A stretch of 64,000 nt of DNA from Acholeplasmataceae bacterium. GTDB taxonomy: Bacteria; Bacillota_I; Bacilli_A; Acholeplasmatales; Acholeplasmataceae. Made by a program: the position numbers and the translations under genes. Location: contig JAVEVJ010000001.1 of assembly GCA_034005105.1 (NCBI GenBank), forward strand, positions 5,954-69,953, read 5' to 3'. The notes below the pieces were generated by a model. It was not told the origin of the DNA. It saw only the letters and a list, made by a program, of their open reading frames with translations, and searched no databases. Of this stretch, positions 32,691 through 40,558 are shown one piece after another. Positions within the stretch are counted from its first letter, which is position 1; every line of letters starts with the position of its first letter.

Positions 32691-32719
32691 AAAAAGTGAT
32701 TCAACCGAATCACTTTTTT
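32690..32719. terminator. Bidirectional terminator
   Basis: AAAAAAGTGATT/AATCACTTTTTT 12-bp stem between convergent genes. Confidence 0.85.
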
Positions 32720-33812
32720 ACGCATTTTCAATGATGGCTGTAATGGGTACAAGCAAGAACGCTAACCACGAAATGTGGAAGAGTTGAAAGAAGTAACCAA
32801 TCGTAAAGAAGATAATCACAGCGATAAAGGGCATCAGTGCGGTCATTCTAAACCTATCAAAGAGGATGATGGCAGCAACAGGAATGAGCAAGAACACTTG
32901 CCAAGCCCAAGCCCAACCGTTTAAGGTAAAACCTAATACCAGAAAAATACCAGCGGCTAATACGACGAGTGATAACATCGTAATCGCTTTGGTTCGTTCG
33001 ACACCGGTTGGATAGCTCCATAAAAAACGAACATCACCAAGGATTAAACCCATCGCAAGTGGTAGAGCAAATCCGATAGCACCATATATCCATGATCCAT
33101 AGACATATCCCATGTAGAGATAAAAGGCAATCGCAACGATAAAGGATAATTCATAGACAATGACTTTTAAAACGCTTTTCTCATTGAGTATACCAAGCAT
33201 GGGGATGATTAAGAAAACTAACCAACCTGGATTCCATAACTGGTATTTAAATCCAAGAATAAGGAAAGCAAACAATGCAACAAATGGAGAAATAGCAACG
33301 GGTAATTCTTTTATTCGTGTATGCATGATAATAGCAACCACAGGAATCGATAGAAAGATTAGCCAACCCGGATGCCATAAATCAAAACCCCATCCTAATA
33401 TAAGAAAGATGATCACACTCAAAAAGGGCATTAAAGCAACAATTCCATCCTTAAGACGTGTCTGAAGTAGGATAGCAGACATTGGGATTGCAAGGAAAAC
33501 CAACCAACCCGGATGCCATAAATCTTGATAAAATCCTAATACAAAGAAAATGATTAAGCTAATAAACGGCATGACAGCGATGATTTTTGTCTTTATATTC
33601 TTTTCTTTTTTCTGCTGCAAGGTATCTCTTAACTCATGAGCAACCTCTTTAGGTGCTCCTAACATTTCACAAACCTCTTCGTCTGTTTTACCTGAAGCGA
33701 TTGCATCGTCATAGAGTTGAGCATAATCACTCAAAATCTCTTCGACATCTTTTTTACTTGCACCCATTTCCATGAGTACCTGTTTTAAACCATTTAAATA
33801 TTTAGCTTTCAT
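32718..33812 (-). CDS. DUF1700/HAAS-domain membrane protein with repeated 2-TM units
   Basis: N-terminal YLxxL...EEILSDY...GKTDEEVCEMLGAPKEVA; W[HN]PGWLxFLxIP repeats. Confidence 0.75.
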   Translation of the reverse strand: MKAKYLNGLKQVLMEMGASKKDVEEILSDYAQLYDDAIASGKTDEEVCEMLGAPKEVAHELRDTLQQKKEKNIKTKIIAVMPFISLIIFFVLGFYQDLWHPGWLVFLAIPMSAILLQTRLKDGIVALMPFLSVIIFLILGWGFDLWHPGWLIFLSIPVVAIIMHTRIKELPVAISPFVALFAFLILGFKYQLWNPGWLVFLIIPMLGILNEKSVLKVIVYELSFIVAIAFYLYMGYVYGSWIYGAIGFALPLAMGLILGDVRFLWSYPTGVERTKAITMLSLVVLAAGIFLVLGFTLNGWAWAWQVFLLIPVAAIILFDRFRMTALMPFIAVIIFFTIGYFFQLFHISWLAFLLVPITAIIENA

Positions 33813-34125
33813 TACTTGTCCCTCCTAAAAGCTTGAAGACGCCTTCTAAAAACGAGCGCCACTCGGTCTGATACTCACTGAGTTTATTTTGACCAAGTCC
33901 TGTTAAACGATAATACTTTCTGGGAGCACCGATATTTGTTTGTTCGACATATGTTTCAAATAATCCTTGTCCAGTCAGCCTTCTTAATATGGGGTATACA
34001 GTATTCTCATTGACATCGATTTCTTTAGCGAGTGAATCAATGACTTCAAAGCCATACATATCACGCTTAGAAATGATGGAAAGGATACACATTTCAAGGA
34101 TACCCTTTTTAAATTGAGTATTCAT
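33802..34125 (-). CDS. PadR-family transcriptional regulator
   Basis: QFKKGILEMCIL, MYGFEV, TVYPILRRL, PRKYYRLT. Confidence 0.92.
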   Translation of the reverse strand: MNTQFKKGILEMCILSIISKRDMYGFEVIDSLAKEIDVNENTVYPILRRLTGQGLFETYVEQTNIGAPRKYYRLTGLGQNKLSEYQTEWRSFLEGVFKLLGGTSNES

Positions 34126-34139
34126 AGAACCCTCCTTAC

Positions 34140-34185
34140 TGTGCTTTACACACTACTAGGATACACCAGTCCTGTGCAAAACACA
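34140..34185. promoter_or_regulatory. Two TGTG-N5-CACA inverted repeats, candidate PadR operator
   Basis: TGTGctttaCACA (34140-52) and TGTGcaaaaCACA (34173-85), 33 bp apart, just upstream of padR. Confidence 0.5.
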
Positions 34186-34244
34186 ATACCTAAAATAAAA
34201 AAAGTGAAAAAAGTGACATATGCTTGTTTTTTAACCTGTGAATG

Positions 34245-34253
34245 TGTTACTCT
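34245..34253 (+). promoter_or_regulatory. Extended -10 element of the aro leader/operon
   Basis: TGtTACTCT, with TTGTTT 18 bp upstream of the hexamer. Confidence 0.45.
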
Positions 34254-34280
34254 ATATGCAAACAAAGAAAGGTGATTTCA

Positions 34281-34328
34281 ATGTTTAATTTCTATCAGGC
34301 TGGTTATTATTATTACGCTTTTGTCTAA
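34281..34328 (+). CDS. Aromatic leader peptide MFNFYQAGYYYYAFV
   Basis: AAAGGTGA RBS, ATG...TAA, 5 Tyr (4 consecutive) and 3 Phe in 15 codons, directly upstream of aroF; not in the ORF track. Confidence 0.85.
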   Translation: MFNFYQAGYYYYAFV

Positions 34329-34392
34329 GGATTGCACCAGGCATTCCTTTTTCGAGTGAAATGAAGGAACAGCCAATTCATGACAAACGTTC

Positions 34393-34425
34393 ATCCTTGG
34401 GGTTCCTCAGGGATTTTTATTTTTT
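34393..34425 (+). terminator. Attenuator (terminator) hairpin in the aro leader
   Basis: ATCCTTGGG-GTTC-CTCAGGGAT 9-bp stem followed by TTTTATTTTTT, upstream of the aroF RBS. Confidence 0.8.
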
Positions 34426-34444
34426 ATCATAAGGAGAAATAAAT

Positions 34445-35464
34445 ATGATTGTTCAGATGAAAAAAGGCTCTACCAAAAAAGAATACGAAAAACTGATTGA
34501 ATTTCTAAGAGCTAAACAACTCGATATTAAAGATGTATCTTCAGATGAGGTACGCGTGTTTGGTATTATTGGGGACACTTCATCGCTTGATCCGAGTGAT
34601 CTTTATGCATTTGAAGGTGTCAAAGAAGTTACACGTGTTTCAACACCCTTTAAAAAAGCAAGCAGAAGTTTTAAGAAAACAGATACCATCATTCGTTTAT
34701 CCGAAGAGGTGATGATAGGTGGTGATCAGTTTGTTGTGATTGCTGGACCTTGCTCTGTTGAATCGGAAGAACAACTCAGAGTGATTGCTAAAGGCGTCAA
34801 AAAAGCTGGAGCACATATGCTCAGAGGTGGCGCATTTAAACCGAGAACATCTCCCTATGCTTTTCAAGGACTAGAAGTCGAAGGACTTAAGATATTACAT
34901 AAGATTGGACAAGAGATGGGATTAAAGATTGTAACTGAGATACCATCAGCTGATCTATTACCTCTTTTTGAAACCTATGTTGATGTGATTCAAGTCGGAG
35001 CAAGAAACATGCAAAATTTTCATCTTTTGAAAGCTTTAGGCAAATCAACGAAACCTATTTTGCTCAAGCGTGGTTTATCAGCAACCATTGAGGAGTGGTT
35101 GATGTCAGCCGAATATATCATGGCAGGTGGTAATGAGCAGGTCATCTTATGTGAACGTGGTATTCGTACCTATGAAAAATATACAAGAAATACACTCGAT
35201 ATTTCCTCTGTTTTAGCAGTTAAAGAGTTATCACATTTGCCCGTCATCGTCGATCCTTCACACGCTGCTGGTCGATGGAATATGATTGAAAAACTATCTT
35301 TAGCATCGTTAGCTGTTGGAGCACACGGTTTAATTGTTGAAGTCCACAATGATCCTGAACATGCTCTATCTGATGGAGCACAGAGTTTGAAAATATCCAA
35401 ATTTGTTGGCATGATGGAACAGCTTAAAAAAGTTGCTGATGTATTGGAGAAAAAGATCACATGA
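34445..35464 (+). CDS. aroF: DAHP synthase type I-beta with N-terminal regulatory domain
   Basis: IAGPCSVES, RGGAFKPRTSPY, QVGARNMQN, LLKRG, CERGIRT, DPSH, EVH. Confidence 0.95.
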   Translation: MIVQMKKGSTKKEYEKLIEFLRAKQLDIKDVSSDEVRVFGIIGDTSSLDPSDLYAFEGVKEVTRVSTPFKKASRSFKKTDTIIRLSEEVMIGGDQFVVIAGPCSVESEEQLRVIAKGVKKAGAHMLRGGAFKPRTSPYAFQGLEVEGLKILHKIGQEMGLKIVTEIPSADLLPLFETYVDVIQVGARNMQNFHLLKALGKSTKPILLKRGLSATIEEWLMSAEYIMAGGNEQVILCERGIRTYEKYTRNTLDISSVLAVKELSHLPVIVDPSHAAGRWNMIEKLSLASLAVGAHGLIVEVHNDPEHALSDGAQSLKISKFVGMMEQLKKVADVLEKKIT

Positions 35465-36291
35465 ACATTTTTATCGTAGGACTTGGTCTCATTGGAGCAT
35501 CCTATGCTTCAGGGCTTTCTAAAAAAGAACATAGGGTATATGGATATGATCAAAGTGAAAAGGTGATGCAACAAGCCATCGAGCAAGAGATCATCGAGCC
35601 ATCATCAAGCTTAGAAAAGATGAAAGAAGCAGATCTTATCATTTTAGCTCTGTATCCTAAGGAAAACGTTCAGTTTATCAAAAAGCATCATCATCTGTTG
35701 GTTTTTGGACAGGTTTTAACCGATGTCAGTGGAACCAAATCCAACATGATGAAAGGTATCCATAACCATTTACCCAAAGGTGTATCTTACACATCCCATC
35801 ATCCCATGGCAGGAAAAGAAAGTTCAGGATTTTCTAATCACAGTTCAACCCTTTTTGATGGAGCAAATTTAATCATCGTTAAAGGAGAAAGATCCTTACC
35901 AAAAGATGAATCTCTGATTCATCATATCGCAAAAGACTTGAACTTTGGTAAAATAATAGTAACAGATGCTTTAACACATGACAGACTGGTGGCATTTACC
36001 AGCCAGCTGACGCACATATTGGCCGTTTGCTTGATGCACGCTGATCACGATAAGGAAACTCAAAGTGCAACAGGAGATTCATTTAGAGATCTCACACGGA
36101 TTGCAAAAATCAATGAAATCATGTGGTCAGAACTCTTTATGGAAAACAAGGACTTGTTATTGATAATCATGGATAACTTTGAGCAAGAGTTTAAAAAAGT
36201 CAAAGAAATGATCGCATTAGGTGAGCATCATGCCTTAAGTACATATCTACGTCAAGCAAGAGAAAAGAGGGATTCTTTTGACATTCATTAA
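35461..36291 (+). CDS. tyrA: Prephenate dehydrogenase
   Basis: GLGLIG, DVSGTK, HPMAGKE, HDRLVAFTSQLTH, SFRDLTRIA. Confidence 0.92.
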   Translation: MNIFIVGLGLIGASYASGLSKKEHRVYGYDQSEKVMQQAIEQEIIEPSSSLEKMKEADLIILALYPKENVQFIKKHHHLLVFGQVLTDVSGTKSNMMKGIHNHLPKGVSYTSHHPMAGKESSGFSNHSSTLFDGANLIIVKGERSLPKDESLIHHIAKDLNFGKIIVTDALTHDRLVAFTSQLTHILAVCLMHADHDKETQSATGDSFRDLTRIAKINEIMWSELFMENKDLLLIIMDNFEQEFKKVKEMIALGEHHALSTYLRQAREKRDSFDIH

Positions 36292-39575: not shown

Positions 39576-40558
39576 ATTCATTTGGAACACTTTTTCGTAT
39601 AACAGTATATGGTGAATCACATGGGAAGGCTATCGGTGTGATTATCGATGGTATGCCAGCAGGCATAAAAATCGACAGTGAAAGTATCATATTGGATATG
39701 CAAAAACGGAAACCTACACAGATGGGTTCTACACCGCGCAAAGAAGATGATGAAGTCAACATCATGAGTGGTGTATTTAATGGATATTCAACAGGAGCTC
39801 CGATCCATCTCATGATAGAAAACCACAATGTCAAATCTTCGGATTACGATGAACTCAAAGCCCATCCAAGACCTGGACACGCTGATTTTGTCGCAGAAAA
39901 AAAATATAGAGGCTTCCAAGATCATCGTGGAGGGGGTCATTTTTCAGGACGTCTCACGGCAGCTATAGTTGCTGCTGGTTCGATTGCTAAACAGATCATT
40001 CCCTTCAAACTATCACATCAAATCGTTCAAATAGGAGAAGAAAAAGATCCTAACAAATTTGCATCTTTAATACAAAGTGTTGCTGATGAAAAAGATTCTA
40101 TCGGAGGTATCATTGAAGTTAAAGTAACCAACATGCAAGTAGGTCTTGGTGAACCCATCTTTGATAAATTGGACGCTAAGATTGCTCAGATGATGTTTGC
40201 TATCCCTGCTGTCAAAGCACTCAATATCGGAACCGGTTTTAATGGTATACATTTAAGAGGAAGTTCTTTCAATGATAAAATCATTGATAATGAAGGAAAA
40301 ACAGAGACCAATCACAGTGGAGGTATCAGCGGAGGAATCTCCAATGGCAATGATCTCGTATTGACGGTCATGATAAAGCCAGCAGCTTCCATTGGAAAAG
40401 CTCAGATGACCTATCACCTAAAAAAGGATGACATGGAGTCACTTGAAGTAGTAGGTAGACACGATGCAGCTATTACACTTCGAGCGGGTATAGTTTTAGA
40501 AAATGCACTCGCTATAGTTCTCGCCGATCATTATCTCATATCCAAGGCTTATCAGTAG
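39572..40558 (+). CDS. aroC: Chorismate synthase
   Basis: GESHG, RPGHAD, GGGHFSGR, GGISGG, GRHD. Confidence 0.95.
   Translation: MNSFGTLFRITVYGESHGKAIGVIIDGMPAGIKIDSESIILDMQKRKPTQMGSTPRKEDDEVNIMSGVFNGYSTGAPIHLMIENHNVKSSDYDELKAHPRPGHADFVAEKKYRGFQDHRGGGHFSGRLTAAIVAAGSIAKQIIPFKLSHQIVQIGEEKDPNKFASLIQSVADEKDSIGGIIEVKVTNMQVGLGEPIFDKLDAKIAQMMFAIPAVKALNIGTGFNGIHLRGSSFNDKIIDNEGKTETNHSGGISGGISNGNDLVLTVMIKPAASIGKAQMTYHLKKDDMESLEVVGRHDAAITLRAGIVLENALAIVLADHYLISKAYQ

Follow-up and report, generated by a model that had tools for sequence, protein, structure and literature searches.

The window analysed here, a stretch of 64,000 nucleotides (nt) of contig JAVEVJ010000001.1 (assembly GCA_034005105.1, positions 5,954 to 69,953), comes from a member of the genus Mariniplasma (Acholeplasmataceae) whose genome assembly amounts to 1.41 Mb and is 96% complete. 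Its + strand carries an aro operon of 7 genes, aroF-tyrA-aroB-aroA-CM-aroE-aroC, which extends to position 40558 and whose products were assigned by Pfam as DAHP synthase, prephenate dehydrogenase, 3-dehydroquinate synthase, EPSP synthase, chorismate mutase, shikimate dehydrogenase and chorismate synthase. The first gene, aroF (34445-35464, with its ribosome-binding site (RBS) AAGGAG at 34431-36), encodes the DAHP synthase and is preceded on the same strand by a short open reading frame (ORF), a set of alternative RNA hairpins and an intrinsic terminator. Comparison with homologous leaders indicates that this element is probably a Tyr-sensing ribosome-mediated transcription attenuator of the whole operon, belonging to the uORFC-13-1 RNA family.

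A Tyr-rich leader upstream of aroF

The leader ORF (34281..34328) starts with the ATG at 34281, comprises 15 codons and ends with the TAA at 34326-28. Its Shine-Dalgarno (SD) sequence AGGTGA (34270..34275) is separated from the ATG by 5 nt, and AGGTGA or GGTG occupies this place in nearly all Mariniplasma-type leaders. The encoded peptide, MFNFYQAGYYYYAFV, contains 5 Tyr and 3 Phe, which makes 8 of its 15 residues aromatic, and four of the Tyr codons are consecutive (TAT TAT TAT TAC, 34305..34316), the fifth being located at 34293-95. A sequence-only reading of the window had described this RBS-preceded ORF and its four consecutive Tyr codons, together with a terminator hairpin at 34393-34414 followed by a U tract in front of the aroF RBS, and both descriptions proved correct. 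The terminator (34393..34426) consists of AUCCUUGGG (34393-401), the loop GUUC and CUCAGGGAU (34406-14), which form 9 bp with a free energy of -10.6 to -10.9 kcal/mol, and is followed by TTTTTATTTTTT (tail UUUUUAUUUUUU, 34415-26). A terminator scan of 33700-35000 on the + strand gave this hairpin as its only call, and the terminator is present, with compensatory changes, in all the homologous leaders. A possible second ORF, opening with the ATG at 34380, was dismissed, since relatives do not keep its frame.

We compared the DNA upstream of aroF in 60 relatives and 80 public loci. The arrangement was found in all of the approximately 30 same-genus genomes with an intact aroF locus, except for a divergent copy (G017/L038), and more than 50 distinct homologous leaders share the ORF, the hairpins and the terminator. 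Outside the genus, leaders were identified in Acholeplasma proper (MQKTQIRFSYYYYYI, with MIHLNSYYYFYHM in A. oculi and MLFTLVGFSYFYYYFK in a 1.88 Mb single-contig genome), in Liberiplasma polymorphum (MRLLLNNSYYYGNLK) and in several metagenome-assembled genomes of Izemoplasmatales (..HYYYVYC, ..VVYYYAYR and ..MYYYPHH); no Tyr leader was found at the aroF loci of the Anaeroplasmataceae and Clostridia examined. An nhmmer profile of the Mariniplasma-type leaders recovered the aroF leaders of Acholeplasma sp. (E = 5e-7 to 1.6e-4), the A. oculi-type leaders L085 and L086 of uncultured Acholeplasma sp. (3e-4 to 1e-3) and those of Izemoplasmatales (1e-13 to 6e-3). The leader of named A. oculi, L087, was not recovered at E <= 0.01. 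Against the 1.4 Mb source genome, the same profile gave a single hit.

Of 55 distinct homologous leader peptides, 53 contain 3 or more Tyr, and 47 have a run of that length. Homologues differ in the N-terminal half of the peptide but keep the Tyr run, with synonymous TAT/TAC changes, and such free N-terminal drift combined with synonymous exchange of Tyr codons is, at the level of sequence, the signature of a leader peptide.

In six leaders (L058, L059, L065, L067, L012 and L014), an Arg codon, CGA or CGT, breaks the run, yielding Y-R-Y-Y, Y-R-Y-H or G-Y-R-Y-Y-Y-Y; L065 and L067 retain 2-3 Tyr and intact RNA hairpins. These interrupted runs could be a sign of decay or of a second sensed codon. 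The divergent same-genus copy L038 (G017:C14), whose aroF is 64% identical, lacks a Tyr leader and carries instead the short leader ATG AAG AAC CCC TCT TAA, with a hairpin and U-run, AAAAAGTCTTTAAGGAGTTCAAAGACTTTTTTTT, upstream of aroF.

We also scanned the source genome (1.41 Mb) for other leaders of this type, that is, short ORFs that have an SD sequence in front of them, contain a triple-residue run and lie ahead of a terminator. The scan produced 18 hits, the aroF leader being the sole one with a Tyr run. None of the other 17 was convincing as an amino-acid leader by its peptide sequence; the two of them whose context was inspected, C13 (FFF) and C101 (MMM), fall within coding sequence or on its opposite strand, and the remaining 15 have mostly Ser or Lys runs.

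One switch strand with three co-evolving partners

The RNA between the Tyr codons and the terminator can fold in several mutually exclusive ways, most of which involve a single switch strand, region 2 (R2, GAGUGAAAUGAAGGAACAGCCAA, 34354..34376). Its first partner is region 1 (Y0, 34298..34320), located within the ORF, which pairs through GGCUG (34298-302), UUAUU (34310-14) and CGCUU (34316-20) with 34354-34374; this pairing forms the minimum free energy (MFE) structure of the free leader. The second is Y1 (GGCAUUCCUUUUU, 34340-52), which contains the 3' arm of hairpin A and captures region 2 in hairpin B (34340..34374, -10.3 kcal/mol) by pairing GGC (34340-42) with GCC (34372-74) and UUCCUUU (34344-50) with GAAGGAA (34363-69). 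The third is the segment TL (34397-409), made of the 3' half of the terminator 5' arm (T5), the loop and the first nucleotides of the 3' arm. The resulting antiterminator, AT2 (34362..34409), joins UG (34362-63) to CA (34408-09), AGGAAC (34365-70) to GUUCCU (34402-07) and CCAA (34373-76) to UUGG (34397-400), encloses a small hairpin of AUGA (34380-83) with UCAU (34391-94), and uses up the 3' half of the terminator 5' arm, the loop and the first 4 nt of the 3' arm.

Hairpin A itself (34327..34352, -8.7 kcal/mol) pairs AAGGA.UGC (34327-35) with GCA.UCCUU (34341-49) around the loop ACCAG and is followed by a U-run (34350-52). Its 5' arm, R1 (AAGGAUUGC, 34327-35), overlaps the stop codon of the leader ORF and begins 1 nt past the first base of that codon. 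The hairpin sequence, RGGAYUGC...GCAYUCCUUUUU, is kept in all clades. Hairpin B cannot coexist with hairpin A or with the antiterminator.

Since R2 and the terminator do not align column-wise between clades, we evaluated these pairings with a partner-swap test rather than with a covariance model or column pair counts. In this test, cognate partners were compared with clade-swapped ones over 12 clades, with one representative each and 5000 derangements. The terminator arms gave the strongest signal (z = -12.4, 0/5000 derangements as good), followed by the pairing of region 1 with region 2 (Y0:R2, z = -7.4, 0/5000; duplex of -15.2 kcal/mol in the source leader), the antiterminator R2:TL (z = -4.8, 0/5000; -13.3 kcal/mol) and Y1:R2, corresponding to hairpin B (z = -2.7, 21/5000; -12.0 kcal/mol). 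Four control pairings (R2:T5, Y0:TL, Y0:Y1 and R1:R2) remained within ±0.7, and a fifth, R1:TL, departed from zero (z = -2.8, 21/5000), which is an expected by-product of the resemblance between R1 and R2: Y1 is a partner of both, and TL is similar to Y1. Region 2 (34354-76) thus emerges as one switch strand with three mutually exclusive partners, 34298-320, 34340-50 and 34397-409, with all of which it co-evolves.

The antiterminator had been placed elsewhere by the sequence-only reading, which paired CUAAGGAU (34325..34332), overlapping the leader stop, with AUCCUUGG (34393-400) in the terminator 5' arm, closed this duplex over the UUCCUU/AAGGAA hairpin and let a ribosome at the stop codon mask it. 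This duplex, R1:T5, does exist, with 8 bp including one G-U and -9.9 kcal/mol, but it shows no co-variation (z = 0.0, 2363/5000 derangements as good). In relatives its energy drops to between -1.7 and -5.9 kcal/mol, and in the clades where the terminator arm has changed and its partner has not (L019, L081, L097, L099 and L100), to between -1.7 and -3.3 kcal/mol, whereas R2:TL in those same clades reaches -7.7 to -18.6 kcal/mol. Furthermore, 14 of 37 same-genus leaders carry C for U at the equivalent of 34332 with no change that compensates for it in R1:T5. Within the genus, AT2 displays a compensatory indel, from GGAAC:GUUCC in the source leader to GGAC:GUCC in L058 and GGACA:UGUCC in L065, and the reach of region 2 into the terminator loop explains why this loop is conserved. 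Taken together, the comparative data support R2:TL as the conserved antiterminator.

Folding of the leader with ribosome-masked segments, a check that the sequence-only reading had proposed, gave a divided answer. In the pre-terminator transcript of the source leader, a ribosome on Tyr 1-3 leaves R1:T5 as the MFE structure, in favour of that pairing, and a ribosome on Tyr 4 leads to hairpin A plus AT2; full-length equilibrium folds gave no discrimination. Across the pre-terminator masked folds of 56 leaders, R1:T5 is dominant only in the source leader and in L080 (P about 0.5), appears partly in L004 and L035 and has a probability of about 0 in most relatives, and the conformer that combines it with hairpin B is the least stable of those modelled explicitly for the source leader (-16.0 kcal/mol). 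We therefore consider it unlikely that R1:T5 is the antiterminator of the family; being specific to the source sequence, it may make a species-specific contribution there. Two further parts of the earlier proposal fared differently. The internal TTCCTT/AAGGAA hairpin (34344-49 with 34364-69) exists and co-varies as part of hairpin B, but it sequesters the antiterminator strand and thereby favours termination instead of acting as an antiterminator scaffold. The idea that a terminating ribosome decides the outcome by masking the segment at the stop codon finds support, with 34325-35 as the deciding part, and so does the broader claim that the aro operon of this Mollicute is under a ribosome-coupled leader-peptide transcription attenuator.

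A proposed attenuation cycle and its alternatives

The mechanism that we propose draws on the position of hairpin A relative to the ORF. Measured in 51 distinct leaders from the first base of the stop codon, the 5' end of this hairpin has a median position of +1 nt (range -5 to +8). Its GG core falls at +2 to +9 nt from the stop, a stretch covered by a terminating ribosome, which reaches approximately 12 nt downstream. Counted from the first Tyr codon of the run, the helix begins 13-26 nt further on (median 22), beyond the reach of a ribosome stalled at that codon. Region 2 sits approximately 30-45 nt past the stop codon.

With no ribosome on the leader, or once it has left, region 1 would hold region 2 with hairpin A nested inside, so that the terminator forms and transcription stops. 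When Tyr-tRNA is scarce, the ribosome would stall on the Tyr run and cover region 1; hairpin A, starting 13-22 nt downstream of the Tyr codons, would stay closed with its Y1 arm locked, and the free region 2 would pair with the emerging terminator as AT2, allowing the polymerase to enter aroF. When Tyr-tRNA is plentiful, the ribosome would travel on to the stop codon and open the abutting hairpin A, whose freed 3' arm (Y1) would capture region 2 as hairpin B, again permitting the terminator to form. Hairpin A would thus act as a relay of ribosome arrival and hairpin B as an anti-antiterminator. Hairpin A with its U5 might additionally pause the polymerase, keeping ribosome and polymerase in step, as the 1:2 hairpin of E. 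coli trpL is a pause signal that synchronises the two.

The design resembles that of the E. coli trpL, pheL and hisL attenuators in its short leader with tandem codons for the end product, its 1:2 pairing with region 1 inside the ORF, its 2:3 antiterminator, its 3:4 terminator and possibly its pause hairpin. It differs from them in that Tyr is the amino acid sensed, in that there is no sequence or Rfam relationship (Trp_leader, Phe_leader, His_leader and the other Proteobacterial Rfam leader families gave no match at E <= 10), in that its antiterminator reaches into the terminator loop, and in that region 2 is too far past the stop for direct masking by the ribosome, a distance that the stop-abutting hairpin A appears to relay. 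We tentatively suggest, with slightly less than even confidence, that this Tyr-specific attenuator is older than the split between Acholeplasmatales and Izemoplasmatales, and that it extends a trp-type design by a stop-abutting relay hairpin, possibly also a pause signal, whose freed arm captures an antiterminator strand 30-45 nt away. If true, it would imply tight ribosome-polymerase coupling in these wall-less Bacillota, many of which would run the entire shikimate pathway just to make tyrosine.

The energies calculated for the source leader agree with the ribosome-free state as the ground state (Y0:R2 with hairpin A and terminator, -34.3 kcal/mol) and place the remaining conformers close together: hairpin A with AT2, when Y0 is unavailable, at -21.6 kcal/mol, hairpin B with the terminator at -21.2 and hairpin A with the terminator at -19.6. 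On their own, AT2 (-12.9 kcal/mol) and the terminator (-10.9 kcal/mol) exclude each other by overlap. When Y0 and Y1 were withheld from folding, every one of the 51 distinct leaders paired TL with R2 in its non-terminator fold, and in 31 of them this R2:TL fold was at most 2 kcal/mol from the terminator fold, or better. Long-range pairings to the SD region of the leader ORF appeared in several pre-terminator MFE structures and were discounted as unreliable. In the MFE structures of the free and stop-state transcripts, the SD and start region AAGGUGAUUUCAAUGUUU (34269-34286) is paired with the complementary AAACGUUCAUCCUU (34383-34400), which lies before and into the terminator 5' arm, and the same is seen in L027 and L075; it might represent a link between initiation on the leader ORF and the switch or a by-product of SD-like and anti-SD-like repeats.

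Several points weigh against the proposed cycle. Full-length equilibrium folds with ribosome masks favour the terminator at every ribosome position (P = 0.78-0.95 in the source leader), and as modelled the mechanism depends on the order of folding; with conformers this close in energy and equilibrium folds insensitive to the mask, the decision must be kinetic, that is, co-transcriptional. Hairpins A and B hardly differ in energy, B being the MFE structure in 19 of 56 leaders, which means that the lock provided by hairpin A is not guaranteed by energy alone. Being invariant in sequence, hairpin A shows no co-variation across the 12 clades (z = -0.8), and its role seems to rest only on position and conservation. 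The swap test, for its part, scores the best local duplex in windows that we defined ourselves and involves no column-wise alignment. Ribosome-polymerase coupling is reported to be loose in some Bacillota, which would make the mechanism harder to realise. Finally, hairpin A with its U5 resembles a weak terminator, which would imply the opposite logic.

This last point can be developed into an explanation of its own, in which hairpin A and the U-run form a first terminator that a closely following ribosome suppresses, so that the leader senses completion of translation and not stalling. The stability of hairpin A (-8.7 to -13.9 kcal/mol), the U4-5 that follows it, the A-run flanking it in many relatives and the abutment of its 5' arm on the stop codon are all consistent with such a role. 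However, the terminator scan does not call hairpin A, the co-varying pairings of region 2 with region 1 and with the terminator would go unexplained, and a first terminator alone would lower expression under Tyr starvation, the wrong direction for a biosynthetic operon; we regard this explanation as very unlikely. We hold it to be highly improbable, too, that the short ORF is not the sensor and that the terminator is controlled directly by the conserved RNA, chiefly the invariant hairpin A, acting as a riboswitch or protein-binding site. Conservation of hairpin A in sequence beyond the needs of pairing would fit this possibility, as would the PadR-family regulator encoded divergently in Mariniplasma, but this regulator is not kept as a neighbour beyond the genus, Rfam gave no match to a known riboswitch or T-box, and the invariance of hairpin A follows from its pairing with several partners. 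Moreover, whereas the remaining codons drift, the ORF, its SD sequence and frame, the Tyr run and the placement of the stop at hairpin A persist across orders, and region 1 of the co-varying switch falls in the Tyr codons themselves.

Tyrosine as the probable signal, the known family and the genomic setting

The attenuator model with Tyr as its signal also agrees with the composition of the leader peptides and with the genes that they precede. Over the 55 distinct peptides, and leaving aside the initiator, Tyr makes up 30.9% of residues and Phe 5.9%, and Trp occurs once; Phe is never doubled (no FF) and is absent from 23 of the 55. At all 41 leader-bearing public loci (41/41), tyrA immediately follows aroF; in the same-genus genomes that carry it, pheA is unlinked, and the two pheA upstream regions that were read, in two relatives, hold no leader peptide. 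In the source genome, neither prephenate dehydratase (PF00800) nor TrpA (PF00290) was found, in searches that were both positive in 14 of 14 control genomes. Tyrosine is therefore the only aromatic amino acid for which a branch enzyme was found (tyrA), the markers searched for the Phe and Trp branches being absent. Prephenate dehydratase is also missing in 23 of 36 same-genus genomes, and in genomes without it the shikimate pathway seems to serve only tyrosine and perhaps chorismate-derived cofactors. The Tyr run, the linkage to tyrA and the absence of the Phe and Trp branches together identify Tyr as the conserved signal and make the operon effectively a tyrosine operon. Hence the Tyr half of the Tyr/Phe sensor outlined in the sequence-only reading stands and its Phe half does not, and the uORFs found upstream of aroF in relatives, with their co-varying pairings, are rich in Tyr but not in Phe. 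Sensing of Phe, least probable of all, has in its favour the 3 Phe of the source peptide (UUU at positions 2 and 14, UUC at 4), a UUUUCC block before the Tyr run that is conserved in A. laidlawii-type leaders but not in the source leader, and the precedent of a Phe-responsive leader in Corynebacterium glutamicum, against all of which stand the scarcity of Phe beside nearly universal Tyr and the association of the leader with tyrA and not pheA.

Whether the element had already been reported for Acholeplasma was a question that the sequence-only reading had left to the literature, and the answer is affirmative: it was published in 2021 as the uORFC-13-1 motif, from the genome of Acholeplasma laidlawii PG-8A (Brewer et al. 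2021, RNA Biol 18:2417, PMC8632094). That paper describes 24 representatives, from Acholeplasma and environmental sequences and exclusively upstream of aroF, with an RBS, a start codon, a short upstream ORF (uORF) directly before an intrinsic terminator, an additional supported stem and possible -35 and -10 boxes within the motif. It proposes attenuation by ribosome speed, in which a 'run of U nucleotides' encoding one or more Phe would sense this amino acid, and contains no mention of a Tyr run, no antiterminator model and no experiment (PMC8632094). A full-text search found no further paper mentioning the motif, and it is not in Rfam 15. The source element shares the described features, namely the location upstream of aroF (the element ends at 34426 and aroF begins at 34445), the RBS, the start codon, the short uORF and the adjoining terminator; its host is Mariniplasma where the published one is Acholeplasma, and the family is extended here to Liberiplasma and Izemoplasmatales. 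We assign the source element to uORFC-13-1 through its nhmmer homology to Acholeplasma aroF leaders and the published description, rather than through the published alignment or covariance model. The motif itself is thus already known; what our comparison appears to add is Tyr instead of Phe as the ligand, an occurrence in more taxa, a connection with a tyrosine-only pathway and a base-pair model. If this reading is right, the published Phe assignment would be corrected. The family is far more widespread than its 24 published representatives, occurring in Mariniplasma, Acholeplasma, Liberiplasma and Izemoplasmatales, and in these genomes the short ORF (15 codons in the window) and the attenuator should be annotated upstream of aroF.

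Other leader-peptide attenuators of Gram-positive bacteria offer partial parallels. The aroR leader peptide of C. glutamicum, like the source leader, precedes a DAHP-synthase operon, but in an unrelated lineage; as summarised in PMC11802643 (Neshat et al. 2014), it lies upstream of aroF, contains Phe-Tyr-Phe and responds to Phe, not Tyr. His-leader attenuators have been predicted comparatively in the B. cereus group, Peptostreptococcaceae and Erysipelotrichales (PMC9413887), and resemble the present case as predicted leader-peptide attenuation in Bacillota lacking T-box or repressor control, with another amino acid and another operon. The source attenuator opens no new class of mechanism, and its interest lies in being a well-supported case of leader-peptide attenuation in a Bacillota/Mollicutes lineage, where T-boxes and riboswitches dominate.

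Aromatic genes of Bacillota are usually controlled by T-box leaders (RF00230), which likewise read tRNA charging and control a terminator before amino-acid genes, but do so by direct binding of the tRNA, whereas the source leader would sense through the ribosome. An Rfam search of 33000-36000 at E <= 10 yielded no T-box, no known leader family and no matching riboswitch, although the T-box model did detect a T-box in a relative of the same order. In this relative (L046, G054:C9), RF00230 matches with 105.7 bits before aroF, which is followed by pheA, and the specifier loop, read by eye, is GAA-UUC-A with a Phe codon. This T-box with its Phe specifier before aroF-pheA suggests that both the type of regulator and the amino acid sensed track the branch enzyme.

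The aroF protein combines PF00793 with an N-terminal ferredoxin-like regulatory domain, PF18152 (34445-34645). This domain has an allosteric feedback role in other DAHP synthases, and tyrosine may therefore act at the level of the enzyme as well as at that of the transcript.

Upstream of the leader, a probable promoter was recognised by eye at 34224..34253 on the + strand, with a -35 box TTGTTT (34224-29), an 18-nt spacer and a TG-extended -10 box TGtTACTCT (34245-53); a consensus promoter scan made no call for this pair of boxes. A promoter-like block, TTGTCT...TG(A/T)TAC(T/C)(A/C)T, is kept at equal distance in relatives, and the transcript would probably start near 34259-61 from this putative promoter. 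Divergently from the operon, on the - strand, lie the PadR-family gene (33802-34125) and then a gene for a HAAS-domain membrane protein (32718-33812). Between the PadR-family gene and the aro promoter there are two imperfect palindromes, TGTGCTTTACACA (34140-52) and TGTGCAAAACACA (34173-85), both kept in the same-genus relatives L031, L049 and L050, which look like putative PadR operators.

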